Assembly (NCBI GenBank): GCA_016926395.1
Contig: JAFGOT010000012.1
Location: 1-43,595, forward strand
DNA: 43,595 nt
Direction: 5' to 3'
DNA from: Candidatus Woesearchaeota archaeon
GTDB taxonomy: Archaea; Nanobdellota; Nanobdellia; Woesearchaeales; SKGA01
Shown here: in pieces, positions 192 through 39,138 of the stretch
Numbering within the stretch: the stretch's first letter is position 1
Layout: each line of letters begins with the position of its first letter
The notes under the pieces: generated by a model
The model's database searches: none
Told to the model about the DNA's origin: nothing
Seen by the model: the letters and a program-made list of their open reading frames with translations, nothing else
Translations under genes and position numbers: made by a program

Positions 192-2945
192 GAACACAAT
201 TTGCAAAACATAGACATCACTTTACCTAGAGATAAATTTATTGTAATTACAGGCCTTAGTGGGAGTGGAAAGTCAACACTCGCATTTGACACCATATATG
301 CAGAAGGTCAAAGAAGATATGTTGAATCATTATCAGCATACGCTCGTCAATTTCTAAACTTAATGAACAAACCAGATGTTGATAACATAGAAGGTTTAAG
401 TCCGGCAATTTCTATTGAACAAAAAACAACTAGTAAAAATCCTCGATCAACAGTTGGAACAGTAACAGAAATTTATGATTATTTAAGATTATTATTTGCG
501 CGTGTTGGAGTTCCACACTGCCCTGAACACAAAACCCCAATAAAAAGACAATCAGCATCTAGCATAAAAAATCAGATTATAAAAAAGTATAATGGAAAAG
601 AAGTTGGAATATTTGCTCCTGTAATAAGACATAAAAAAGGAACATATGAAACACTCCTAAAAGAATTTTACGACCAAGGATATCTACAAGCAGAAGTTGA
701 TGGAAAACCACACCCTACAGATGAAGAAATAAAACTTGATAGATACAAACAACACGATATTAGCATTCTAATCGACATAATAACAGTCAGCGAAGATGAA
801 AGCGATAGAATACTTGAAGCAGTAGAAGGAGCACTAAAACTTGCAAATGGCCTTGTAAAAGTTGAGAAAGATACATATAGTGAACACATGGCATGTAGTA
901 AGTGCGGTTATTCTCTTGAAGAACTTCAACCAAGAATGTTCTCATTTAACACACCATACGGTGCATGCGCTAGTTGCACTGGGCTTGGCTTTAAACAAGA
1001 AGTAGATCCAGATTTAGTAATCCCAAATAAGGGACTTAGCATTGCAGAAGGCGCGATTGCAGTCTATAGTAAAATGGACAGTTCTTGGAGAGGACAACAA
1101 CTAGAAGCAGTTGGTAAAAAGTTTGGATTTAATCTTTGGACACCAATAAAAAAAATGTCAAAGAAACAACTTGACGTTCTGCTTTATGGAACGGATGAAG
1201 AAATCAAAGCAACATGGAGCACGGGCGCTACAATGAATTTCGAAAATGGATGGGAAGGAGTAATCCCTCAAACCATGAGACTTTACATGCAAACAGAATC
1301 CGATTATAGACGAAAAGAACTTGAAAAATTTATGCAACAACTTCCTTGTCCAACATGTCATGGTAAAAGATTAAATGAAAAAATACTAGCAGTATCAATC
1401 GATAAGAAAAACATAATTGATGTTACAGATTTAAGTGTTGAAAAAGCACTAACATGGTTTAAAGGACTTGAATTCGCGGTTGATGAAAAACAAATAGCAA
1501 CACCAATACTAAAAGAAATAATTTCGCGATTAACATTTCTATCAAATGTCGGCCTTAGCTACCTAACATTATCAAGAAATGCAGGAACACTATCAGGCGG
1601 CGAAGCACAAAGAATTAGACTTGCAACACAAATAGGTGCAAACCTAACAGGAGTATTATACGTTCTTGATGAACCAAGTATAGGACTTCACCAAAGAGAT
1701 AATAACAAATTAATCAAGACACTTCACAAATTAAGAGATTTAGGAAACACATTAATAGTTGTTGAACATGATGAAGATACAATTGAATCAGCAGACCATG
1801 TTGTAGATATAGGACCTGGAGCAGGAATTCATGGCGGAAAAATAATCGCGCAAGGAACACCTCAAGATATTAAAGATTGTACTCAATCACTCACAGGACA
1901 ATACTTAAGCGGTAAGAAAAAAATAAGTTATAGACCAAAACGTCGAGAACCAAAAGGATGGTTTATGATTAAAGGCGCACAAGAAAATAACTTAAAAAAT
2001 ATTGATGTGATGTTTCCAACAGGAGTTATGACGCTCGTAACAGGAGTTAGTGGAAGTGGAAAATCAACACTGGTTCACCAAATTCTCTACAAAGGACTTG
2101 TAAAAGAAATCCACGGCACGAGAGTAAATCCGGGAAAACACAAAAGCATAGAAGGAGCTCATAGCTTTGAAAAAGTAATAATCATCGATCAATCGCCAAT
2201 TGGAAAAACCCCAAGAAGCAATCCTGCAACATACACAAAAGTATTTGATGATATAAGAACACTATTTGCGATGACAACAGAAGCAAAAGTTAGAGGATAT
2301 CAAGTTGGAAGATTCTCATTTAACGTAAAAGGCGGAAGATGCGAGAAATGTGCAGGCGAGGGAGAAATCAAGATAGAAATGAATTTCTTACCAGATGTTT
2401 TTGTAGAATGTGATGAATGTAAAGGGCACAGATATAATAAAGAAACATTAGAAGTAAAATATAAAGGAAAAAGCATCGCAGAAGTTTTAGAAACAAGCGT
2501 TGATGAAGCACTTCCATTCTTTGAAAATATTCCTTCAATAAAAAGAAAACTCCAGACATTAGTTGATGTTGGTCTTGGATATTTAAAATTAGGACAAAGC
2601 TCAAACACCCTATCAGGCGGAGAAAGTCAAAGAATTAAGCTGACAAGAGAATTGTCTAAACGAGGAAACGATAAGACACTTTACATCCTTGATGAACCAA
2701 CAACAGGACTACATTTTCATGATATAAACAACTTACTTAAAGTGCTTAACAGATTAGTTGATCAAGGAAGCACGATGATTATAATCGAACACAACCTTGA
2801 CATAATAAAAAACGCAGATTGGGTGGTGGATTTAGGACCAGAAGGAGGAGAACATGGCGGAGAAGTCATTGCATCTGGAACTCCTGAAGAAATAGCTAAG
2901 TCTAAAAAAAGCCACACAGCCAAATTCTTAAAAAAAGTTCTTTAG
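159..2945 (+). CDS. uvrA: Excinuclease ABC subunit A
   Basis: Two ABC ATPase modules (GLSGSGKS, GVSGSGKS, LSGGEAQR, LSGGESQR, LDEPS/LDEPT) and CxxC Zn fingers; 928 aa. Confidence 0.98.
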   Translation: MNDKLIVRGAREHNLQNIDITLPRDKFIVITGLSGSGKSTLAFDTIYAEGQRRYVESLSAYARQFLNLMNKPDVDNIEGLSPAISIEQKTTSKNPRSTVGTVTEIYDYLRLLFARVGVPHCPEHKTPIKRQSASSIKNQIIKKYNGKEVGIFAPVIRHKKGTYETLLKEFYDQGYLQAEVDGKPHPTDEEIKLDRYKQHDISILIDIITVSEDESDRILEAVEGALKLANGLVKVEKDTYSEHMACSKCGYSLEELQPRMFSFNTPYGACASCTGLGFKQEVDPDLVIPNKGLSIAEGAIAVYSKMDSSWRGQQLEAVGKKFGFNLWTPIKKMSKKQLDVLLYGTDEEIKATWSTGATMNFENGWEGVIPQTMRLYMQTESDYRRKELEKFMQQLPCPTCHGKRLNEKILAVSIDKKNIIDVTDLSVEKALTWFKGLEFAVDEKQIATPILKEIISRLTFLSNVGLSYLTLSRNAGTLSGGEAQRIRLATQIGANLTGVLYVLDEPSIGLHQRDNNKLIKTLHKLRDLGNTLIVVEHDEDTIESADHVVDIGPGAGIHGGKIIAQGTPQDIKDCTQSLTGQYLSGKKKISYRPKRREPKGWFMIKGAQENNLKNIDVMFPTGVMTLVTGVSGSGKSTLVHQILYKGLVKEIHGTRVNPGKHKSIEGAHSFEKVIIIDQSPIGKTPRSNPATYTKVFDDIRTLFAMTTEAKVRGYQVGRFSFNVKGGRCEKCAGEGEIKIEMNFLPDVFVECDECKGHRYNKETLEVKYKGKSIAEVLETSVDEALPFFENIPSIKRKLQTLVDVGLGYLKLGQSSNTLSGGESQRIKLTRELSKRGNDKTLYILDEPTTGLHFHDINNLLKVLNRLVDQGSTMIIIEHNLDIIKNADWVVDLGPEGGEHGGEVIASGTPEEIAKSKKSHTAKFLKKVL

Positions 2946-2980
2946 AAAGATTTATCAAGTTTTGATTTCTGTAAAACAAC

Positions 2981-3502
2981 ATGGAAGAAGTAGAAGTAAA
3001 AATATTAGAAGTTGATAGACCTAAATGTGAAAAAATACTCCTTGATTTAGGAGCGGAGAAAATATTTGAAGGCACTATAAAGACAGTGGCTTTTGATAAT
3101 GGAAATAAAACACTAACAACAGATAAACAATTCATAAGACTTCGAAAAGAAAATGAAAAAAACGTTTTAGGCTTTAAAGGAAGAATAAAAAACAAAGAAG
3201 CCAAAGTGATGGAAGAGATAGAAACCGAAGTTGGCGATTTTGATAAAACAGTACAAATTCTTGAAAGGGTTGGGTTCACAATATGGACTCAAAATACAAA
3301 AGACAGAATTAGCTACAAACTAGAAGGAGTGAGATTCGATTTTGATAAATATAATGAAGAATACTCATACATCCCTGAATTTTTAGAGATTGAAGGAGAA
3401 AATATTGAAGTTATCAGAAAGTATGCAAAAATTCTTGGATTTGAAGATGAAGAACTTAAACCATGGGGATTTGGAAAACTCAATAATAAATATAAATCTT
3501 AG
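2981..3502 (+). CDS. CYTH-domain protein (class IV adenylate cyclase / triphosphate tunnel metalloenzyme family)
   Basis: N-terminal EVEVK (ExExK), IRLR and FLEIE motifs. Confidence 0.85.
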   Translation: MEEVEVKILEVDRPKCEKILLDLGAEKIFEGTIKTVAFDNGNKTLTTDKQFIRLRKENEKNVLGFKGRIKNKEAKVMEEIETEVGDFDKTVQILERVGFTIWTQNTKDRISYKLEGVRFDFDKYNEEYSYIPEFLEIEGENIEVIRKYAKILGFEDEELKPWGFGKLNNKYKS

Positions 3503-8968: not shown

Positions 8969-9893
8969 AATTTAATTTCAAAAAAATCAAGGAAATCGCC
9001 AAAAAAAGTATTCAGAGAAAAAGAACAACAATCAAAGATCAATCAGAACAATTTGTTTATGATATGTTCTTGATTATGGCATTCACAATACCTGCATTCA
9101 TAGCAATAGCGATAGAAGAAGGAACCTATTTATCAATAATACCAATATTCATAATCGCCAGTTTTAACTGGTATTTAATATTTGCAATTCAGCATATAGA
9201 AAAAATAGTGAAAAACGTTTTGGAATACAAATATATATCAAACTAGTAGAACGCCAAAAGAAAACACTAGAGCAACAAAAAAACAAATCCAAAATACCTG
9301 TAAGAAAATTAATCTATCAGGCATTCATTCTAATAATCATAATTACGCCTTTAATGATTTTACCAATAATGGTTAACGGATCAATGAATTATCAAAATAG
9401 GGGGGGAATAGCACAAATAAATCAGGGATACAATAACGACAAAATAACAACAAACGAAGAATTCATTGTAAAAATTAACGATCCATTTGATCAAGGATCC
9501 ATTCAAAGATTATTCACAATAACAGGAGTAAAATTAAATCTACCAAACTACGAAGTTTGTTTTGAACAAAAACAAGAATTAAAAAGTAAAGCCAATGCAA
9601 CCACATTTTCAAGCACAATAACAATAAACAACATCAATCACGAGTTAAATTTAACAGATACATATTGTCAAACAATAAACTCTGAAAAAGGATCATTTGA
9701 AATAAAATCAACTTACGATCTCAACAATGAAAACAACATAATTATTACTGAAAATGAACTATATTATAAACCAGATATTTTTATAGACATTAATTGGAGT
9801 AATTTTTTTACAAATGCAATAGTTTTAATATTAGCGTGGTGGGGTTCTTGGTTAATTGTTATTAACATATTCAAAGAATTAAAAATTAATTAA
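8965..9893 (+). pseudogene. Membrane protein apparently split by a frameshift (ORFs 8965-9246 and 9354-9893)
   Basis: The frame of the second ORF stays open back to 9168 with protein-like sequence (GIQIYIKLVERQKKTLEQQKNKSKIPVRKLIYQAFILIIIITPL) and overlaps the first ORF in the -1 frame. Confidence 0.6.
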
Positions 9894-10939
9894 TTGCAAA
9901 AACCAAAATAACTAACATGTAATGAATCCAAATATTCAATATTTTCATCTTTAAATACTAATCTTAAGAACTTAAAGGTCTTATCTTCTTCAGAATAAAC
10001 TTTAAAATATTGCAAATAAGATTTATCTAAGGCATCATCAAGTAAATCGATAGAAACATATTCACCATCTTGTTTCAAAATTCCATTAAATGTGAAATTC
10101 ACAGAGGAAATATTCTCAGTAAAAACAAGTGTTTTGTAAATGTTAAACAAAGAATCATCTTGAGTAAGTTCATATGAATAAGAGGTAGAACAATTAGTAG
10201 ACTCATTAAAACCAGTTCCATCAGATGCAAGAAATCCAATAATTAGAATTGCAAAAACAAATATTAAACCAATAAAAGTAATAATAAAATCTTTGATTAT
10301 TGAAGATTTTTTTTTGAATTTAAAACTTCCAAAAACAACTGAATTATATTTTAATTTGAAAGCTGAACTAAATAACAGTATAATCAACATAGTCCACAAG
10401 AAATTTTCAAAAACAGATATAAAACTCAAAGTATGAAAAATAAAATTATTCGATTGGGTGAAAAAATCTAATTTCAAAAAAAGAAATGAAAATCCATATA
10501 ATATTAAGAATAATTCAATATCAACAACATATCTATCAGAAGGGGTATAATTCATCCTTATTGAAATAAAAAATAAATAAATTAAAACCACAGATAAACC
10601 AATTATTCTCGAGATACTGTGACCTGGAAATGAAAGCATAACCTCAAAAAGATAGAAAATTAAAAAACCTGCAAAAAATAATCGAGTTAACTCAACTAAG
10701 AAAGGCAAAATTAATCTTATGAATGATTTGTTAGTTCTTTTAGAGTCTTTCCAATACGATATAAATAAAGATTTATTATGAAGATAAATCATATACCAAC
10801 CAACCATAAAAAGAACAATAAAAATAACATAAATAATTGTCAAATTATTATTATCAGAAAGATAGAATGAAAAAACAGCAACTAATAAAGATAACAAAGC
10901 AGTAATTTTCCAAAAGTCTATTTTAGTATCTAGTTGCAT
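9890..10939 (-). CDS. Multi-pass membrane protein with a soluble C-terminal domain
   Basis: 349 aa with about seven hydrophobic segments; no family recognised. Confidence 0.7.
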   Translation of the reverse strand: MQLDTKIDFWKITALLSLLVAVFSFYLSDNNNLTIIYVIFIVLFMVGWYMIYLHNKSLFISYWKDSKRTNKSFIRLILPFLVELTRLFFAGFLIFYLFEVMLSFPGHSISRIIGLSVVLIYLFFISIRMNYTPSDRYVVDIELFLILYGFSFLFLKLDFFTQSNNFIFHTLSFISVFENFLWTMLIILLFSSAFKLKYNSVVFGSFKFKKKSSIIKDFIITFIGLIFVFAILIIGFLASDGTGFNESTNCSTSYSYELTQDDSLFNIYKTLVFTENISSVNFTFNGILKQDGEYVSIDLLDDALDKSYLQYFKVYSEEDKTFKFLRLVFKDENIEYLDSLHVSYFGFCN

Positions 10940-11090
10940 GAATAAAAAATAAAGAGCGCTCTAAATAAATATTTCTAAAAAAAAGCATAAAACACAACAT
11001 TTATCCAATTTATATAAAAAAATATCATTATACGAGTTAAAACACCACTTTAAAAGAGTAAAAATATAAATAACTATTAATTTACGCTAA

Positions 11091-12065
11091 TTGGCAATGA
11101 ACTTAAATATAGATAGACCCATTGAAAGAGAAGAAGAAGACAAATTATATTATAATGAACTATATGCAGGAAAGCTAGAACAAATCATTTCTAAAAACAA
11201 AGATAAATGCATCAAAGTTGGACTATTTGCCAAGTTTGGATCTGGAAAAACAAGTACAATAAATATCCTGTGGCAAAGATTGAAGAACAAAAGAAAAGTA
11301 ACTTTAAAAAAGAAAAATAAACGATTCATCCATGTAAAATCATTATGGGATTATTCTCCCGAAGATATTCTAAAAAAAATTATTGTTTCAGTAGATAAAC
11401 AAGCAAATTTAAAACTCAATTTAAACAAAGAAATAAATTCTGAAACAACATATATAGATGAGAAAGAAAAACGAATCAACTTCTTAACATACATAACGAT
11501 TTCTCTTTTCGCATTAATTGGAATCTCATTAATCGGAAAAAACACTGCAACAATAAATATGAATAAACCTATTAATGATATTGCAACAGTGGCTCTGAGC
11601 CATTCAATGACAATACCAAGTGCAACACTCCAATTATTAATAGGTTTGATTACAACGGGCTTAGCAGTTATGTTTGCAGTTAACTCATTTAAGAAACAAA
11701 CTAGAAGACCTCCTTCTACAAGTTATGATTTTGAAGATTATTGGATACAAATTCTTAAAGCAGCAAATCAAAAAGGAATAAAAGAAATAACATTAGTAGT
11801 AGATGACTTAGATAGATGCAAACCAGAAATAGTAAATGGGATATTTGGAAAGCTAAATGCAATCGTTGAGCAAACGGAAGAAAGATCCAAAATAAGTATG
11901 AACTTAATAATTCCATTTTCACTAGCAGATTATTTATTAATCGATGGAGATAAAGAAATCGAACGACTAAAATTCAATTATAAAAAATTCTTTGATATAA
12001 TAATAGACATGCCAGAACTAGGACCATTAGAACTTCAGAGGTTAGATGAACATGAAAATAAGTGA
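11091..12065 (+). CDS. KAP-family P-loop NTPase, N-terminal part
   Basis: Walker A GLFAKFGSGKTS, two TM segments inserted in the NTPase, Walker B LVVDDLDRC, and KKFFDIIIDMP; TTG start. Confidence 0.85.
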   Translation: MAMNLNIDRPIEREEEDKLYYNELYAGKLEQIISKNKDKCIKVGLFAKFGSGKTSTINILWQRLKNKRKVTLKKKNKRFIHVKSLWDYSPEDILKKIIVSVDKQANLKLNLNKEINSETTYIDEKEKRINFLTYITISLFALIGISLIGKNTATINMNKPINDIATVALSHSMTIPSATLQLLIGLITTGLAVMFAVNSFKKQTRRPPSTSYDFEDYWIQILKAANQKGIKEITLVVDDLDRCKPEIVNGIFGKLNAIVEQTEERSKISMNLIIPFSLADYLLIDGDKEIERLKFNYKKFFDIIIDMPELGPLELQRLDEHENK

Positions 12066-14079
12066 AGAAAAACTAACCCAAAGTATTTCTAAGTACGGCA
12101 CAATAATAAAAAATCCTCGAAACTGGAGAATGTATCGAAATTTTGTATCCACTCAAGCAGACATAAAAATAAAACAACATGAATTAATGAAAAAACGAAT
12201 ACCTCAAATATACAACATAACAAATCCTGAAGATAAAATTTGTTTTTGTACATATATACTATTTCAATTTCCAGAATTAGCAGAAAAAATCAGAAAATTT
12301 CCTCAATATCAAAAGCAAATAAGGGAAATAGCAGAGCATCTTAAAGATTCAAACGACAACAAATTTGACCCTAATAACAAGATAGTTACACGAAACATGA
12401 ACTCACTCTTCAAATCTATTGAAACACCATATTTTGAAAATTCAAATGAAGCAAATATTCCAGAATATTACAAGAAAAAGCCTTCTGAAGAAGAATTTCT
12501 AAGTTTTATTGAACAAACCTACATGGACGTGCCAACAGGTCTTGAATGGGATTTTTTTATGCTGAATAATATATTAACAACAACTAACATGCTTTTAATA
12601 CAACAAACATATAGCAACAACAGAGATTCAAACATTGACAAAACACTAAAAATATTAAATAACAATTGGAATCATTACTTTCAATCAGTTGATGAATATA
12701 TGAAGTACATTCTTATTTCAGGTTTTGATTTGTATAATTTTATCAAAATATTTGTAGAGTGTAATCAAGACATCGAGAATCCAGAAATAATTTCTAAATA
12801 CCAAAAAGAAGCATTAACACTACTAGTTAAATGGATTCAAAATGAGCGGTTTCTTAATATCTTTGTTGAACAAATAATGTTTAAAATGTACATGGCAACA
12901 GATTTAGGCGAATTTGCAAGATCTGATGCTAAAATCCTAGAAAAAAATCGCTGGAATATAGCAAAGGAAGAAAAATTCTACGAACTATTTAACCAAATAA
13001 TTCAAAAGAATTGGAGAATAATGCAATCCAATCAAGACGATAATAAATTATATTCATTATTAATAAGTACATGTAGATACAACAATACTTTGCTAAAATT
13101 ATTTCACATCCCCACAGCAGTTAAAGAATATATGGATGATAGAAAAATCAATAAAGCACTATGGAGTGTGGGACCCCTAGGACAATTTTCTAATGAAGAC
13201 CAAAAGAACATATCTCAATTTCCAGCACTAACAGTTGAATTAAAGTATCGACTAAGTTTAATGAAAGAAAAAGAATCCGAATATCAATTTCCAGATCAAT
13301 TAAGTAAAGTTCGAATAGAAAAAAAACTAATTCAAGTTTATGACATTATTAACACCAACAACCCACCTGTATACATAAGAAGACAAATAATTGGAGAGTT
13401 AATACGAAAAGCAGAACAAGTATTAAGAGATCAAAAAAACAAAAATTACATCAATCCAGTTCTTGAAGGTTTAGAATCGATTGCATTAATGATTATGTAC
13501 CTAGAAAACCAAGAAACACAAAGAAACTCAAAAAACGAAAATACAGACGAATTTATTTTACAAGAAATACAATTTCCAAGAATAGTAATCGAACTTATCA
13601 GAAGCCAAACAGAACCAATAAATAAAATCGAACTAAAAAATAAAATATCGCAAACAATATTTTTAGATAAAACACAAGATCAAATGATAAAAGACTTAAT
13701 TCAATACAAAGAAAAATTACGTCCAAAAGAAAAAGAAAGCAAACGCAATACGCCTAACAAAAAAGAAACCATAAAACGAGCGGTGAAATATTTATTTGAA
13801 AATGTAGACTACGATGAACAATCGAATGGACAAATAGGGACAGGTCATTTCAAAACAAACGCAACTCAACTATTCTATGAAGAAATAACAACAGAAAAAC
13901 AACTAAAAACAGCAGAAAGAAAATATAAGAAAATATTCAAACAAAACAAAGATAAAATATTAACAATGATCATTATAATTGGAAATGAGTTCGGAGAACA
14001 ATTTGTTGAAAAAACTATTTCAATGAGAGAAGCCGCGACTGAAAGAGTTGCATTTATTGATGAATCGGAATTCAGTTAA
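12046..14079 (+). CDS. Probable C-terminal continuation of the KAP NTPase with a large helical region
   Basis: Begins with the KAP-typical NPR...R..N motif (KNPRNWRMYRN); 20-nt overlap with the upstream ORF in the +1 frame. Confidence 0.7.
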   Translation: MNMKISEEKLTQSISKYGTIIKNPRNWRMYRNFVSTQADIKIKQHELMKKRIPQIYNITNPEDKICFCTYILFQFPELAEKIRKFPQYQKQIREIAEHLKDSNDNKFDPNNKIVTRNMNSLFKSIETPYFENSNEANIPEYYKKKPSEEEFLSFIEQTYMDVPTGLEWDFFMLNNILTTTNMLLIQQTYSNNRDSNIDKTLKILNNNWNHYFQSVDEYMKYILISGFDLYNFIKIFVECNQDIENPEIISKYQKEALTLLVKWIQNERFLNIFVEQIMFKMYMATDLGEFARSDAKILEKNRWNIAKEEKFYELFNQIIQKNWRIMQSNQDDNKLYSLLISTCRYNNTLLKLFHIPTAVKEYMDDRKINKALWSVGPLGQFSNEDQKNISQFPALTVELKYRLSLMKEKESEYQFPDQLSKVRIEKKLIQVYDIINTNNPPVYIRRQIIGELIRKAEQVLRDQKNKNYINPVLEGLESIALMIMYLENQETQRNSKNENTDEFILQEIQFPRIVIELIRSQTEPINKIELKNKISQTIFLDKTQDQMIKDLIQYKEKLRPKEKESKRNTPNKKETIKRAVKYLFENVDYDEQSNGQIGTGHFKTNATQLFYEEITTEKQLKTAERKYKKIFKQNKDKILTMIIIIGNEFGEQFVEKTISMREAATERVAFIDESEFS

Positions 14080-14234
14080 GAGTAATGTTGAACTTAAATT
14101 TAATAAATTATCAATGGACAATTTTCCAACCTTACAAGTAACAATTACTGAAAAAAACAGTCTTTTCATTCATCGTCAAACATCTATTTAATTAATAAGT
14201 ATAAGTCTAAATGAACTTTTATTTATATTTAACC

Positions 14235-14264
14235 GGCAAATCTGCCTAATTAGGAAAATTTGCC
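14235..14264. promoter_or_regulatory. Imperfect 30-bp palindrome
   Basis: GGCAAATCTGCCTAA|TTAGGAAAATTTGCC, 13/15 arm match. Confidence 0.45.
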
Positions 14265-14602
14265 TATGTTTCTCCAAGTTGGAGAATTTTATTAAAATAT
14301 AGTCTATAGACAATAATTTAGAGGGGAAATAGAGTTATAACTAAATCACAATAGAATATAAAGGTAGGTTGGATAAAAAAACAACTCGGAGATGAATAAA
14401 TGACTATCGAAATAATTAACAAAATATGTTATTTCTGTGACCGAACGGGACAAGAATATAACAAAGAAGAATGCGATAATACTATTAAAATAGATAACAA
14501 TGAATTAACTTTGTGCAATAAATGTTATTTAAGATATAAAGAAGGAAAATTACCTTTAACATATACAAAAATTTAATTTATTCAAGTAGGAGATTCGAAC
14601 CT

Positions 14603-14809
14603 TTAAAGAAATGGTGACCCCAGGAGGGCCGGATTATTGACATCACGTCGAGGATGAACCTCTGAAATCCCAAAAAGAGCCACTTTCAACAGCTGATTGA
14701 TTGTCTTGGATATGTTCACACCTTGTTTTTTGAGGTTTTCGTGGGCCTCATAATCAAGATTAATATGTATCCTCACAGCTTTGTTTTTACTGTTCTTTTT
14801 TGGTCTCAT
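14603..14809 (-). CDS. Integrase N-terminal fragment (intN) with a ribbon-helix-helix-like domain
   Basis: The ORF runs through the att repeat (LLGSP is encoded by the repeat) and is in frame with intC across the repeat; RIHINLD...LKKQGVNISKTINQLL resembles an RHH fold. Confidence 0.85.
   Translation of the reverse strand: MRPKKNSKNKAVRIHINLDYEAHENLKKQGVNISKTINQLLKVALFGISEVHPRRDVNNPALLGSPFL
14611..14627 (-). repeat. att site, tRNA-distal copy
   Basis: ATGGTGACCCCAGGAGG is identical to 21981-21997 (tRNA-Arg 3' end). Confidence 0.92.
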
Positions 14810-15146: not shown

Positions 15147-16217
15147 CTATCTTAAAGTGATAGACGTTGAAGCAGTTGCTATAACTTTTGTTGAAACTCC
15201 TCGTTTAAGATTAACTTTCAAAGTATAACTTCCAGGAGGCAATGAATCCATACTATCATAACCAACATACGTTTCTTTGTAAACACCATCATAACCCACA
15301 GGAATTTCATCAAAGTCATAAGCATAAGTATCAATGTCTCTGCTTTTCACGGAATCCAATTTCATGATATAAAAATCAAAAGTAGGATTACTAAGAGGAA
15401 TTTCTCCAACATTCTTTATGCCAACTTTAACATAATCTAGGAAACATTCATCACTATAGCTATAACAAGTAGGATTATAATCAACAACACTCAATTCTAT
15501 TTCATGCTCCTTGTTTGCTAACTCTAATAATTCTTCCTCTTCTTTGATTTGTGATTTTAATACATCTCTTCGTTCAAAAATATCATAATCAAACAAATCA
15601 TTTATTTCGTCAAGCTGAGCATCATCAAAAGCATTTAGTCTTTCAAGTTCTGCTTTATCAAGTTCGATGATTTGGGAAAAAAGTTGTTTGTATTTGGTTT
15701 CATCAGATTCTTTATTCATCTGTTCCATCAAGTCTCCTCGATTAACATTCCATTCTCTTCGTTCATATCTATAATTTACAAATGCTTCTAGAAGAGCAGT
15801 ATCATAAGCTTCAGATAATTTAGCAACACTTCGGTTCATTTGATTAATTTTTGTTAAAATAGTATCAAAATTAATTAGGTCTCCCTCTTTGCTGTATTCC
15901 CAACTTTCTTCTTCCCAGTAACCCATAAACTTTTCAAACTCATCAGTTTCTTCAAGTTTAGCTTTAGCACAAGCATTAACTACTTTATCGCCTTGGTTTA
16001 GTTCCTTACATGAGGAGAATGCAGGACATTCAATATCCAAACAACAATTATCAGATGTTTCTCCAGTTTCAATAATTCCATTACCACATATTGCTTTTGC
16101 ACTAGATTTAGAAGACAAACCAGAATCTGTAGAATCACTCGTATCACTAATTGAACAAGCAGTGAACAAGAACATCACAGTCACTAAAATAGCCAAAATC
16201 ATCAATCTAAATTTCAT
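15147..16217 (-). CDS. Lipoprotein with a Cys-rich motif, coiled coil and probable Ig-like C-terminal domain
   Basis: Lipobox-like LFTA-C; CGNGIIETGETSDNCCLDIEC; beta-rich C-terminus (VKVGIKNVGE...PPGSYTLKVNL). Confidence 0.75.
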   Translation of the reverse strand: MKFRLMILAILVTVMFLFTACSISDTSDSTDSGLSSKSSAKAICGNGIIETGETSDNCCLDIECPAFSSCKELNQGDKVVNACAKAKLEETDEFEKFMGYWEEESWEYSKEGDLINFDTILTKINQMNRSVAKLSEAYDTALLEAFVNYRYERREWNVNRGDLMEQMNKESDETKYKQLFSQIIELDKAELERLNAFDDAQLDEINDLFDYDIFERRDVLKSQIKEEEELLELANKEHEIELSVVDYNPTCYSYSDECFLDYVKVGIKNVGEIPLSNPTFDFYIMKLDSVKSRDIDTYAYDFDEIPVGYDGVYKETYVGYDSMDSLPPGSYTLKVNLKRGVSTKVIATASTSITLR

Positions 16218-16228
16218 AATAAATCACC

Positions 16229-16261
16229 TATTTGGTTAATAGATTGTTAATATTTGGTTAT
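16229..16261. promoter_or_regulatory. Three 11-bp tandem repeats between divergent genes (candidate operator)
   Basis: TATTTGGTTAA / TAGATTGTTAA / TATTTGGTTAT. Confidence 0.55.
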
Positions 16262-16583
16262 ATATTTAAAAGTTACTATTTCAAGTATGAACACATATGC
16301 AGGAAGAAACATACCTCAACTAAATACTCAAATAGAGCTTATTTCATGGCTAAAACGTGGAAAGTATAGGCGGGATGTTTTTGAACAAGTTAAAGACAAA
16401 ACAACACCTGCAGAAATTGTTGCAAGATTATCCAAACAAAGAAAATCAAGTAGTGACTACGTGCAAGTTTCTAGAGCTTTGAGAGAATTAGAATTACAAG
16501 GACTAATTAAATGTTTAAACCCGAAAGAAAAAACTGGAGGACTATATGAGAAAACATCCAAAGGAACTAAAATAATTATTTGA
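16254..16583 (+). CDS. Winged helix-turn-helix transcriptional regulator (start may be ATG 16287)
   Basis: TPAEIVARL...QVSRALRELELQGLIKCLNP...GGLYEKTSKG matches an archaeal wHTH pattern. Confidence 0.8.
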   Translation: MVIYLKVTISSMNTYAGRNIPQLNTQIELISWLKRGKYRRDVFEQVKDKTTPAEIVARLSKQRKSSSDYVQVSRALRELELQGLIKCLNPKEKTGGLYEKTSKGTKIII

Positions 16584-16816: not shown

Positions 16817-17089
16817 ATGGTTAAACAAACTATGAAATCTGAAAATTTAATCTATATTTTTAGATTACTAGGTATGTTAATCATCACAGTAATTATGAGA
16901 TGTTTGTTCAGCAAAACCAACCAAGAATTTTATGATTACATATCCTATGTGTTTTCAATAGGGATATTATTATTAATATTATTACCAAATCTTCATGAGT
17001 TTAAATTTTGGGGAATTAGTGCAAAAGGAAATAATCAACAAATAGACGACACAACTAAAATAATATTGGTGAACGAAAATGGCAAATAA
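16817..17089 (+). CDS. Small two-TM membrane protein
   Basis: Two hydrophobic segments; overlaps the next ORF by 11 nt. Confidence 0.65.
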   Translation: MVKQTMKSENLIYIFRLLGMLIITVIMRCLFSKTNQEFYDYISYVFSIGILLLILLPNLHEFKFWGISAKGNNQQIDDTTKIILVNENGK

Positions 17090-17405
17090 AATAAATTTTA
17101 AAGAAGGAAGTATTAATTTTTGGATTCCGGAAAACGTATTTGACTTTGACGATAACCAAACACACATACTAGTAAATCAAGGAAATTTAGAAGGCTCAAT
17201 ATTTATTGTTAAGGATGGGGATAATAAACTTAAATTCTTTCATGTATTGCTTGGCAAAGGAAGAACAGATGTTGTTATAGATGTACAAGAGTTATTAAAA
17301 AGTGAAAAACACATGATTACTGCAACGTGGAGCATAAGTAAAAAAGAAATCAATCTTTACATTGATGGTGGGAAAAAACACAACACTACCAAAATAACGT
17401 ATTAA
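17079..17405 (+). CDS. Small beta-sandwich protein, LamG/concanavalin-like
   Basis: EGSINFWI and HMITATW...INLYIDG resemble LamG-like strands. Confidence 0.6.
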   Translation: MANKINFKEGSINFWIPENVFDFDDNQTHILVNQGNLEGSIFIVKDGDNKLKFFHVLLGKGRTDVVIDVQELLKSEKHMITATWSISKKEINLYIDGGKKHNTTKITY

Positions 17406-18850
17406 TCACAACTGACAACCGGTTTAAAACCTAATTTTTCTTCGTATTTTTCTATCATTAAATTCATAACTTCTTCTTGATGCGAAATCCCAACCATGAC
17501 TGAATCATGAATAGGAATTGCAGGAATATTTTTTGTTACTAACTCATCTAAAATTTCCAACATTATTGATGAATCTTCAAATTGTAAATCTAAACCAACT
17601 CCGGTAAAGAAAAATTCTTCAATATTTGGATGTGCTGTTCTAAATGCAGAGATTATTTCCCTTATTCTTACGTGTGTACTAATCTCATCGCCAAATTCTT
17701 CCTTTAGTTCATGATTAGAACCAAACTCTCTTGCTATTGCTTTTATTGCAGACTCTTCATCGCCACTATTGAGCATAATATTTGTTACTGCTTTGTTTAG
17801 TTTTCTTGTTCCTTCATCTCCAAAAGAATAAAGGTCTGTTTCAGAAGGATAAATATTTTTTCTATGATAAAGCATACGCAAATGCAATGTGCTATAATCA
17901 GGTTCAACGACAGATTCATCATTAATTTTTATTTCATGACGAATAACTTTTGGCAAACCTTGAACCTCACTTCCATACAATCGACCACCTTTTGTAAAGC
18001 TTGATTGATTAAATACACGTTTGATTGATAAGTGTCTTAATGAAATCGTATGAGTAAAGGGGTAATAGTTATTTACTAGTGAATCTAATATCTCATTTCG
18101 TGTGGTAGTCTGTGAATCATATCGTATATAACGTGAATCTGTATTGAAATGAGTGTATAGATGAATCCGTGTATTAAACAATAACTGCGAGTAATCTTCG
18201 TCATTCATCTGAACCGTGACTTGTTGATTTAAAATGAATTCATTGTATCTTTGAATTTTTCTCCTCATCTCATCAAGTTCAGGAGTATTTTCATAGTCAA
18301 CTAATTTTTTATGTTCATCTTTTAACTGAATAGGTTCAACAAAACCAGAATCATCAATATCCAAAGCATCGTTAGAAGAAAACCGTGGAAGTAAATTTCT
18401 AAGTTTAGTCATAGAATCAACACGAGAGTACCTTGATTTATTTGCAAAGCTAAAACCTTTCGCAGAAAGAATAAGATAATCAGTTTCAATTAATTTTTTT
18501 ATTATTGATTCAATAACAATGTTGTAAGTAAAAAATTTAGGGACATAACGAGAACGCTTATCAGAGTAATAATTTTTATTGAACGAAACTGCAACTGGAC
18601 GTTCACAACGCCAAGCAAGAAAAAAATTAGTCAGTATACAATTAAGGGCACTACGTTTAAGTTCTTGTTGATAACCTGAAGACAAGCCAAGTTCATCAAA
18701 CAAAGTATCAACAACAGAAACAAAGTTTTCATCATCAGAATAAGAACGATAATTTAAACGACGAGCACTATCAAAATATAAAGCCTCAAAATGTTTTTGT
18801 TGCAAATCTAAAAGAGATTGCTCTTCCTCAAAATCAAATTGCCAATCCAT
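17402..18850 (-). CDS. Minimal polymerase of the family A DNA polymerase / T7-type RNA polymerase superfamily (TV-Pol-like)
   Basis: In order: GGRLY (DxxGR-like), VVEPDYSTLH (motif A Asp), RKLNK (motif B RxxxK), LQFEDS, IPIHDS (motif C); no exonuclease domain evident. Confidence 0.8.
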   Translation of the reverse strand: MDWQFDFEEEQSLLDLQQKHFEALYFDSARRLNYRSYSDDENFVSVVDTLFDELGLSSGYQQELKRSALNCILTNFFLAWRCERPVAVSFNKNYYSDKRSRYVPKFFTYNIVIESIIKKLIETDYLILSAKGFSFANKSRYSRVDSMTKLRNLLPRFSSNDALDIDDSGFVEPIQLKDEHKKLVDYENTPELDEMRRKIQRYNEFILNQQVTVQMNDEDYSQLLFNTRIHLYTHFNTDSRYIRYDSQTTTRNEILDSLVNNYYPFTHTISLRHLSIKRVFNQSSFTKGGRLYGSEVQGLPKVIRHEIKINDESVVEPDYSTLHLRMLYHRKNIYPSETDLYSFGDEGTRKLNKAVTNIMLNSGDEESAIKAIAREFGSNHELKEEFGDEISTHVRIREIISAFRTAHPNIEEFFFTGVGLDLQFEDSSIMLEILDELVTKNIPAIPIHDSVMVGISHQEEVMNLMIEKYEEKLGFKPVVSCD

Positions 18851-21081: not shown

Positions 21082-21981
21082 TTAACTAATACTATTTGAT
21101 GCTGTTTTCTCCTTAAGCAGTAATACCTCACTAAGTTTCTTTGCAACTTGCTTATACCAAAACTCTGCTTGTTGATTTTTAGCTAAATAATGATTTGCTC
21201 CAATACTGTTTGAAGCACGGCCTTGTATAAAATCTGCTACTCCTTCCGGTACTCCATTATACAGTAAAAAGTTATATTGCCACTTACGAAGATACTTAGC
21301 ATTAAACGTAGCTTTTTTGTTATATACATCTTGTAATCTGTTATTACTTCCAGTTATTCTTTTCAGTTTCTCATAAACAAATAATGGTAAAAAGACTGTG
21401 TTAATATTCTTAGTTTTACGATTATTAGCAACCGAGTATGACACAAAACCGTCGTTTATCTTAAACTTATTAACATCAAACGTTTTTAAGAAATCTAAAC
21501 ATTCAACAAAACGGATTCCTGATGTAGCAAGTATCAAAAATATCAGTTCTAAATCTTCGTTTTCTTTAAGAGCCGTATAACAACTTAACACATCTTCATT
21601 ACTCGGAACATAATAATCATTACCATCCCTACCTAACTTCAAAACCTTACGATAACGCACCAATACATCGTCTTCAAGCAACTCCAACTCTTCACAGAAG
21701 TTTAGATATACCCTACAAGCTTTAACCTTATTTCGTCTTCCTGACGGTTCTGATACAATATATTGACTAAGTTCGAACGGACTATCAAAGGACTTATCTC
21801 TAAAGAATCTGTTAAAATAAGAACGAATTCCTTTAACGTAACCAGTACCGAATTTAGTACTAAGCCAAGAGATAAAATCATCTCCTCTAACAAAATTTAG
21901 GCAGTTAACGTGGGCCTCTTTGTGATGCTCATTTTGAGAATTAAGAGTTTCAACAGCTCTCCGTGATGAATGAGAAATATA
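21082..21981 (-). CDS. Tyrosine integrase C-terminal fragment (intC), SSV-type
   Basis: The frame is open from the att repeat to the stop; catalytic set SGIR...K...KYLRK...QGR...NHY (R-K-KxxR-R-Y). Confidence 0.92.
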   Translation of the reverse strand, partial: YISHSSRRAVETLNSQNEHHKEAHVNCLNFVRGDDFISWLSTKFGTGYVKGIRSYFNRFFRDKSFDSPFELSQYIVSEPSGRRNKVKACRVYLNFCEELELLEDDVLVRYRKVLKLGRDGNDYYVPSNEDVLSCYTALKENEDLELIFLILATSGIRFVECLDFLKTFDVNKFKINDGFVSYSVANNRKTKNINTVFLPLFVYEKLKRITGSNNRLQDVYNKKATFNAKYLRKWQYNFLLYNGVPEGVADFIQGRASNSIGANHYLAKNQQAEFWYKQVAKKLSEVLLLKEKTASNSIS

Positions 21982-21997
21982 TGGTGACCCCAGGAGG
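21981..21997 (-). repeat. att site, tRNA-proximal copy
   Basis: Identical to 14611-14627; covers the last 16 nt of the tRNA plus 1 nt. Confidence 0.92.
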
Positions 21998-22059
21998 ATT
22001 CGAACCCCCGACCTGCCGGTCCGAAGCCGGCCGCTCTATCCAAGCTAAGCCATGGGGCC
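21982..22059 (-). tRNA. tRNA-Arg(UCG), intronless, CCA encoded
   Basis: Acceptor GGCCCCA/TGGGGTC, anticodon arm GCCGG-CTTCGGA-CCGGC, T-loop GGTTCGAATCC, 3' ACCA. Confidence 0.97.
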
Positions 22060-38334: not shown

Positions 38335-39138
38335 ATGTTTGACTTTTTTATAATACCATACATAAACATATTCGGATTTAAACTATATTATTATGGAATG
38401 GTTTATGCAGTAGGATTTTTAGCAGCATATTTCTATTTTAGATATCAAGCAAAAAGTAAAAGATTGGATTTGACGCTTGACCAAGTAGATACACTGATGA
38501 TTTATGTAATCATTGGAGGAATAATTGGTGGGAGATTAGGAGAATTTATTTTTTTCCAGCCAAGTGTTTTGATACACCACCCATTACAAGTGTTTTTAAT
38601 AAGGCAAGGGGGGATGAGTATTCATGGAGGAATACTAGGATTCTTAGGAGCAATATGGTTATTTAGAAGAAAACATAAAAATATTTCAACATATGAAGTG
38701 ACAGATAACGCAGTTATGATTGCGGCATTCACATTATTTTTTGGTAGAATTGCAAATTTTGTAAATGCAGAATTATGCGGAAGACCGACAAGCGTTTCAT
38801 GGGCAGTAAATTTACACAATCCACCTCTTTGCGATGGTTATCGTCACCCATCACAATTATATGAAGCAATAAAAAATTTATTCATAGGTTCTGTTTTAAT
38901 GTTTATTGAAAGCACTGAGAGAAAAACCAACAGGTACAAAGCAGGATTTAAAACATGGGTCTTCATACTTCTGTATGGTATTCTTAGAATAATTACTAAT
39001 TTTTGGCGAGATGATGTTCTTTGGTTTTTTGGAATATTAAGTACAGGGCAAGTACTAAGTTTAGCAATGGTAATAGTTGCAAGTTTTGTTTTGATAAAAT
39101 ATTACTGGTTACCTAATAAAAAAAATAAAAAATCATAA
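38335..39138 (+). CDS. lgt: Prolipoprotein diacylglyceryl transferase
   Basis: YYGMVY, GGRLG, GGMSIHGG, GRIANFVNAELCGR, HPSQLYE. Confidence 0.95.
   Translation: MFDFFIIPYINIFGFKLYYYGMVYAVGFLAAYFYFRYQAKSKRLDLTLDQVDTLMIYVIIGGIIGGRLGEFIFFQPSVLIHHPLQVFLIRQGGMSIHGGILGFLGAIWLFRRKHKNISTYEVTDNAVMIAAFTLFFGRIANFVNAELCGRPTSVSWAVNLHNPPLCDGYRHPSQLYEAIKNLFIGSVLMFIESTERKTNRYKAGFKTWVFILLYGILRIITNFWRDDVLWFFGILSTGQVLSLAMVIVASFVLIKYYWLPNKKNKKS

Follow-up and report, generated by a model that had tools for sequence, protein, structure and literature searches.

The PolA/T7 superfamily of polymerases is regarded as belonging to bacteria, organelles and viruses. A minimal group within this superfamily was described as the Transposon-Virus polymerase (TV-Pol) family (Iyer, Abhiman & Aravind 2008; PMC2579912), whose members lack a fused or linked nuclease, occur in small elements with an integrase, resolvase, transposase or D5 helicase, and were listed from bacteria, viruses and a plastid. 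Some members have an additional N-terminal domain, and their genes adjoin one for a resolvase, a transposase or an integrase of the lambda type. Here we describe such a polymerase in an archaeon. Its gene (P0001; positions 17402 to 18850, minus strand) lies in a 43,595-nucleotide stretch of Candidatus Woesearchaeota DNA (GenBank assembly GCA_016926395.1, contig JAFGOT010000012.1), the whole of which we call the window, and it shares a tRNA-targeting integrated element of a small-genome archaeon with an archaeal-type integrase.

CcPol of SCCmec is the only protein listed as TV-Pol that has been characterized biochemically. Together with the protein MP, it acts as a DNA polymerase capable of de novo priming, prefers deoxynucleoside triphosphates (dNTPs) over ribonucleoside triphosphates (NTPs) and has terminal-transferase activity (Bebel et al. 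2020; PMC7581432). More recently, phage polymerases named divPolA2 were proposed to be either repair DNA polymerases or RNA polymerases (Yutin et al. 2024; PMC11348598), in a study that mentions TV-Pol once, as background, and that describes archaeal chromosomes and known archaeal viruses as using family B or D polymerases. The kind of enzyme encoded in the window is therefore not new, as it belongs to a known and very large family described in 2008, with phage members described in 2024. An archaeon is nevertheless an unusual host, as the family has otherwise been observed in bacteria and viruses, and we found no archaeal TV-Pol in the literature, our coverage of which was incomplete, so that absence is not proven.

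Fold and active site of the polymerase

A sequence-only reading of the window had proposed a polymerase of the family A/T7 type, 482 amino acids (aa) long and devoid of exonuclease and helicase domains. The open reading frame (ORF) is as that reading gave it, with an ATG start and coordinates that include the stop codon; its strand, which had not been given, is minus. An AlphaFold2 model built on a 60-sequence alignment (mean predicted local distance difference test score [pLDDT], 88.6; predicted TM-score, 0.87) agrees with the proposed fold. The top Foldseek matches in the PDB were family-A DNA polymerases (apicoplast Pol, Taq, Bst and Klenow; E ~1e-5, probability 1.00), with mitochondrial RNA polymerase ranked lower. 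A VIA search, independent of Foldseek, gave scores of 14.6 for apicoplast Pol (root mean square deviation of 3.8 over 250 residues), 13.9 for Aquifex Pol I, 13.4 for yeast mitochondrial RNA polymerase, 13.3 for Pol nu, 12.8 for T7 RNA polymerase and 7.4 to 8.1 for N4 RNA polymerases, most alignments covering model residues ~166 to 482. DNA and RNA polymerases of the superfamily thus score about equally against the model. Neither an exonuclease nor a helicase fold is seen in it, and neither domain was matched in Pfam or NCBIfam.

Likeness to known polymerases is visible only in the fold and in a weak, motif-level profile match. No Pfam family, including DNA_pol_A (PF00476), matches the polymerase at an E value of 1 or below, no NCBIfam or PADLOC family matches it, and searches of PDB sequences, with the single sequence by phmmer and with a profile, retrieved no polymerase. 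The hhalign comparison of the family core with Klenow is weak (E 0.02), yet it places every motif in register; over all hhalign comparisons of the family profile with single Pol I and T7 RNA polymerase sequences, the register is right and E values are 0.02 to 0.1.

The model divides the protein into three parts. The first is a small, predicted winged-helix-like domain (aa ~38 to 165; positions 18356 to 18739, minus strand) that lies N-terminal to the polymerase part. A helical, thumb-like region follows between this domain and the palm (aa ~166 to 270; 18041 to 18355, minus strand); helices 190 to 207, 217 to 235 and 251 to 261 occupy the thumb position, and most alignments with PolA structures start at model residues 166 to 183. 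This region differs in length across the family and holds a variable insert at aa 237 to 249 with a pLDDT below 50. The palm and fingers form the catalytic core (aa 271 to 482; 17405 to 18040, minus strand), which is the best-conserved part of the family and the part whose motifs align in register with Klenow.

All core motifs occur in the order first read from the translation, namely, GGRLY (288 to 292), EPDYS (316 to 320), R349-x3-K353, LQFEDS (422 to 427) and IHDS (447 to 450). In the hairpin, G288-G289-R290 (17981 to 17989, minus strand) aligns with T-G-R668 of Klenow, and R290 is equivalent to R425 of T7 RNA polymerase. The catalytic aspartate of motif A, D318 (17897 to 17899, minus strand), corresponds to Klenow D705, and H323, five residues further on, occupies the steric-gate position of Klenow E710. 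In motif B, or the O-helix (R349-x3-K353-x3-N357-x3-N361; 17768 to 17806, minus strand), these four residues align with R754, K758, F762 and Y766. Q423 aligns with Q849, and motif C, H448-D449-S450 (17501 to 17509, minus strand), aligns with H881-D882-E883 of Klenow and with H811-D812-S813 of T7 RNA polymerase.

These residues are strongly conserved. R290, R304, D318 and K353 are kept in 167 of 167 aligned relatives, and N361 (166), D449 (166), S450 (163), R278 (161) and H448 (160) are nearly invariant among them. R349 (156), H323 (153) and D339 (150) are also common, and at position 357 the family has L, N or Q. Conservation extends to the residues that contact the template, R290, Q423 and K353. 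Since the motifs are kept across 167 relatives, this pattern indicates that they form a selected active site rather than a chance resemblance.

The polymerase shares with Pol I (Klenow, Taq) and T7 RNA polymerase the right-hand core of palm and fingers, in which motifs A, B and C keep both order and register. In its motifs it is a mosaic, with a motif A and an LQ motif like those of Pol I and a GRxY hairpin and motif C like those of T7 RNA polymerase. The GRxY and HDS motifs had been read as T7-like variants, correctly so, as T7 RNA polymerase has RGRVY (423 to 427) and HDS (811 to 813) where Pol I has TGRLSS and HDE. The early observation that motif B lacks the Tyr-Gly pair also holds, since Y766-G of Pol I is N361-S362 here. 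The polymerase differs from Pol I in lacking exonuclease domains, in carrying HDS for HDE, and in having H323, N357 and N361 in place of the sugar- and base-selecting residues E710, F762 and Y766. Because those residues are replaced, the polymerase may use either dNTPs or NTPs.

Given these variants, we asked whether the protein might be a minimal, T7-like, DNA-dependent RNA polymerase, transcribing the genes of its element or making an RNA primer at an origin, in the manner of T7 or mitochondrial RNA polymerase. We consider this unlikely. The protein has a motif A (DYSxLHxRMLYH, not the DGSCSG of T7) and an LQ motif of the Pol I kind, an Asn stands where T7 RNA polymerase contacts the 2'-OH through Y639, and Pfam RNA_pol has no match. 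Furthermore, at 482 aa against 883, the protein lacks both the specificity loop and the promoter-binding N-terminal domain of T7 RNA polymerase, with the winged-helix-like domain standing in place of the latter, and CcPol prefers dNTPs (PMC7581432). A related possibility is that the TV-Pol/divPolA2 lineage as a whole uses NTPs, in which case the protein would be a single-subunit RNA polymerase or RNA primase of ~480 aa, targeted by its own winged-helix domain. The His at the steric gate, the Asn in place of the O-helix Tyr and the T7-like HDS of motif C are what suggest this, and we regard it, too, as unlikely. If so, an archaeal mobile element would have a private RNA polymerase, and the T7-type lineage of RNA polymerases would have this protein as its smallest member.

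Family size and TV-Pol membership

An exhaustive phmmer search of 1.84 billion cluster representatives (clusters at 50% identity) returned at least 6,200 relatives at E values of 1e-3 or below, 3,534 of them at 1e-10 or below, with residues ~270 to 480 as the conserved span. In PHROGs, the polymerase matches phrog_4756, a family of unknown function (E 2.4e-50).

The suggestion that the polymerase belongs with TV-Pol is supported by shared features, gene context and taxa, and they, rather than an alignment made directly with a named TV-Pol, are the basis for membership. The 2008 description comprises a hairpin that bears an invariant Arg, a helical thumb that precedes this hairpin and is built on two antiparallel helices, an RRM-type palm with two Asp residues, and fingers that follow the first palm strand as an insertion and carry RxxxK and a conserved Asp (PMC2579912). 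In our model, strands 277 to 280 and 288 to 292 form the hairpin that bears R290, the palm is RRM-like with two highly conserved metal-binding aspartates, and the fingers carry D339 and R349-x3-K353, with helices at 349 to 361 and 365 to 378. There is no nuclease domain, and an integrase lies 2.2 kb upstream. Three of the four defining features are thus clear, and the thumb is plausible but uncertain: helices occur in the matching place, but the region is variable and partly of low confidence, and no homologous thumb was seen in divPolA2 by Yutin et al. (PMC11348598). The winged-helix-like domain of the model probably corresponds to the N-terminal region of the "TV-PolN" subset.

Gene context and taxa point the same way. 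A scan of one genome per prokaryotic species found 113 loci, mostly in Alphaproteobacteria, Desulfobacterota and Gammaproteobacteria. When neighboring ORFs were clustered for 85 loci, a P4-type tyrosine integrase of ~400 aa was found ~1.7 kb upstream in 44 and a resolvase of ~200 aa downstream of the polymerase in 25, which is the published context of TV-Pol with TV-PolN. Relatives occur in taxa named in the 2008 study, including Reinekea blandensis MED297, Alteromonas and Methylobacterium in the species scan and Paracoccus in a plasmid search. A profile of the subfamily to which the window polymerase belongs found nothing in phage Ma-LMM01, a TV-Pol carrier named in that study, in which its TV-Pol is discussed as a separate integrated element (PMC2579912).

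Phages carry the family too. A tblastn search returned 242 phage records, all annotated as hypothetical, of which 115 were from Rheinheimera barbaviruses, 98 from Vibrio phages and 14 from Aeromonas phages; examples of these records are MZ456352 (43697 to 45040) and MG592495 (30536 to 31864). Some records carry two copies. Since this host range is that reported for divPolA2 (PMC11348598), these phage members are most probably divPolA2. Homology, an active palm, the lack of an exonuclease and a distinct N-terminal domain all fit, in a comparison made through the tblastn records and phrog_4756. We observed that the same query and profile match both phage divPolA2 and the bacterial island TV-Pols with an N-terminal domain that are linked to integrases or resolvases, a connection apparently not drawn in that study.

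The integrated element and its archaeal host

The polymerase had been assigned to a mobile element from the letters alone, and its surroundings bear this out. Upstream of it lies an archaeal SSV-type tyrosine integrase of 201 aa (21082 to 21687, minus strand; PF16795, E 4.8e-40), adjacent to a tRNA-Arg (TCG) that is the integration target (21982 to 22059, minus strand; ARAGORN) and that is kept at 87 to 96% identity in genomes of the same genus. A 17-nt attachment (att) repeat at the 3' end of this tRNA (21981 to 21997, plus strand) recurs as an exact match at the far end of the element (14611 to 14627, plus strand). The chance expectation of such a repeat is 0.01, and two copies were found in none of 100 shuffles. 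The two copies bound an insert of ~7.37 kb.

The left flank of the insert (12600 to 14600) had no counterpart in 13 same-genus genomes, among which synteny is poor at ~70% identity, and no uninterrupted tRNA locus was shown. Sequencing runs matching the stretch comprised two of DNA, both possibly from the source samples, and none of RNA. One sample contig of 15.5 kb spans the left attachment site (attL) and ends inside the tRNA. Three joints listed in sample contigs were dismissed, as their sides were only 20 to 21 nt long. No metatranscriptome contig covers the stretch.

The reading of the host as archaeal is borne out by genes of the window for Cbf5, TFB and a UMP kinase of archaeal type; UvrA is encoded there too. 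With an assembly of 1.02 Mb in 40 contigs (82.5% complete), it is a small-genome archaeon of the DPANN type. The polymerase family is rare in the phylum of this host: it was found in 4 of 401 genomes and in none of the same-genus genomes searched. The closest homologue, 50% identical and with all motifs kept, is encoded on a 6.5-kb contig of 30% GC (L001), downstream of a PF16795 integrase that is itself 32% identical to the window integrase (E 1e-14). On that contig, two unrelated ORFs, with no BLASTP similarity to the 685-aa ORF that precedes the window polymerase, stand in its place. Because L001 keeps both integrase and polymerase around unrelated intervening ORFs, we conclude that these two genes are the conserved module and that the genes between them vary.

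In a quick, unrooted maximum-likelihood tree, the window polymerase and its L001 homologue form a clade (SH-aLRT 99) inside a six-row metagenomic group nested among mostly Desulfobacterota sequences, while other archaeal-labeled rows fall elsewhere. This topology is compatible with acquisition from bacterial elements, the direction not being given by an unrooted tree. The position among bacterial sequences, together with the rarity of the family in archaea, raises the question of whether a bacterial element entered an archaeal genome and left the gene there as a decaying or inactive relic. We think this very improbable. The reading frame is intact with all catalytic residues kept, the integrase and att sites are intact, and the GC content of the element (30.9%) equals that of its host (31.6% in the window). 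Moreover, the same motifs persist in a relative that is 50% identical and has an archaeal integrase, indicating purifying selection in this lineage.

Several related contigs were also seen. L016, a 2.2-kb contig of 37% GC from a Nanoarchaeota metagenome-assembled genome (MAG), carries a polymerase that is sister to one from a Deltaproteobacteria MAG, with short branches (SH-aLRT 100), and is probably bacterial and mis-binned, not a further archaeal example. L026, from a Pacearchaeota MAG, encodes a short, 257-aa form (2612 to 3385) consisting of the catalytic core only, near a tRNA-Thr. On L095, a related 4.3-kb contig, the polymerase is paired with a RepA_C (PF04796) plasmid replication protein. 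Contigs L001, L094, L095 and L026 showed no terminal overlaps and no sign of being circular episomes.

Within the element, the nearest neighbor of the polymerase is the 685-aa ORF (P0170; 18834 to 20891, minus strand), which ends 17 nt inside the start of the polymerase gene and is therefore a probable operon partner, translationally coupled to the polymerase. It has no Pfam, NCBIfam or PADLOC family and no homologue among 5.8 billion proteins in a word-seeded search; its only Atlas look-alikes are unnamed Bacillota proteins of ~640 to 690 aa (score, 0.91 to 0.95). Cys-X2-Cys pairs are seen at aa ~383 to 405 and 614 to 640, along with a coiled-coil tail. The element also holds several small ORFs, one encoding a winged-helix protein, and a predicted secreted or lipoprotein-like protein of 356 aa (15147 to 16217, minus strand), whose signal peptide ends in a lipobox-like LFTAC. 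A small ORF on the strand opposite to the polymerase (17079 to 17405) has only a weak, lectin-like Pfam match. No helicase family was found by Pfam or PADLOC in the element ORFs scanned, which were all but the three shortest.

Further observations concern the element and its surroundings. An 11-nt tandem repeat, TATTTGGTTAA (16229 to 16267; 3.5 copies, 75% matches), overlaps the start of the winged helix-turn-helix gene (16254) and reaches into the short divergent gap between that gene and the 356-aa ORF; the repeat may serve the element as an operator or iteron. To the left of the element, the region from 9000 to 14600 is low in GC (24 to 29%) and encodes a KAP-family P-loop NTPase (11091 to 12065) and a 677-aa ORF without a family, and a remnant resembling a tRNA T-arm, GGAGATTCGAACC (14589 to 14601), lies just left of the far att copy. 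An older island, in tandem with the element at the same tRNA, may account for this region. Finally, the window encodes a bacterial-type prolipoprotein diacylglyceryl transferase, Lgt (38335 to 39138, plus strand; TIGR00544, E 2e-46, above the curated cutoff), which, with the lipobox of the 356-aa ORF, hints at lipoprotein processing of a bacterial style in this archaeon.

Proposed role and comparison with known systems

The sequence-only reading had named three possible functions, with no preference among them: a replicase or primase of the element, a private RNA polymerase, or a template-independent synthetase. On balance, we lean toward the view that the polymerase is an active TV-Pol of the subset with an N-terminal domain (to which phage divPolA2 most probably belongs as well), has neither exonuclease nor helicase, and acts as a primase-polymerase that starts replication of the excised element. 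Under this model, the SSV-type integrase would excise the element, the winged-helix domain, a plausible DNA-targeting module in the predicted structure, would bring the polymerase to element DNA and bind the origin, and the palm and fingers would prime a new strand and extend it for some distance. Since the element lacks a helicase, the host replisome may then take over. Three arguments lead us to this role. The polymerase is the sole replication-type protein of a small integrase element; its relation to recombinases is that of AEP and DnaG primases in comparable elements, an argument made for TV-Pol in PMC2579912; and CcPol with MP primes DNA synthesis (PMC7581432).

Other observations weigh against a replication starter. 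CcPol needs the OB-fold protein MP, whose gene is followed by that of a helicase, and neither was recognized in the window element. According to PMC7581432, no member of the subfamily of the window polymerase has been assayed, and the residues behind dNTP specificity in Pol I and CcPol (E710, F762 and Y766) are replaced here. Sample contigs aligned to the stretch, the only sample data used, showed no circular junction or empty site, and a search of the element for an origin returned only the weak 11-nt tandem repeat. In addition, phage members of the family occur beside a regular replicative polymerase, in variable neighborhoods and sometimes in two or three copies, and their replicative role has been doubted (PMC11348598).

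The last point also favors a non-replicative enzyme, acting either in gap filling and repair or in template-independent or signaling synthesis during conflicts among mobile elements, phages and hosts. Carrier elements without a helicase, an upstream 685-aa partner that is an orphan without a replication signature, and the terminal-transferase activity of CcPol-MP (PMC7581432) would be consistent with such a role. Nevertheless, we find it doubtful, given that PADLOC has no match for the polymerase or its neighbors, that the residues contacting the template (R290, Q423 and K353) are conserved, and that the dominant and widespread linkage to integrases and resolvases of small elements fits element propagation better.

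Among known systems, CcPol-MP (PMC7581432; Rice 2022, bioRxiv 10.1101/2022.12.02.518924) is close in that both are family-A-type polymerases of recombinase-bearing mobile elements. CcPol differs in that residues equivalent to E710 and F762 are kept and part of a 3'-5' exonuclease fold is retained, neither of which is seen here. With a family of at least 6,200 clusters, just one distant member of which, CcPol, has been tested, and with active-site variants that fit either DNA or RNA synthesis, the compact 482-aa polymerase offers a convenient test case. The phage divPolA2 proteins are 24 to 31% identical to it and are accessory genes of lytic phages of 80 to 145 kb that have a regular polymerase, whereas the window protein is the sole polymerase of a 7.4-kb integrative element.

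With TV-Pol itself, the window polymerase shares a minimal polymerase domain, an extra N-terminal domain and a small recombinase-bearing element. It extends this known family rather than defining a new one. What is new is that the host is an archaeon, that the polymerase is paired with an integrase of archaeal type, that the active-site variants are documented, and that a 17-nt repeat of the 3' end of tRNA-Arg delimits the element. The occurrence of a TV-Pol with an archaeal integrase in an archaeon indicates that replication modules of small mobile elements pass between domains and combine with integration modules found locally. Relative to the TV-Pols of PMC2579912, the window polymerase differs in its archaeal host, in its SSV-type (PF16795) integrase instead of a lambda/P4-type integrase or resolvase, and in an N-terminal domain that is winged-helix-like in our model where an all-helical fold had been predicted.

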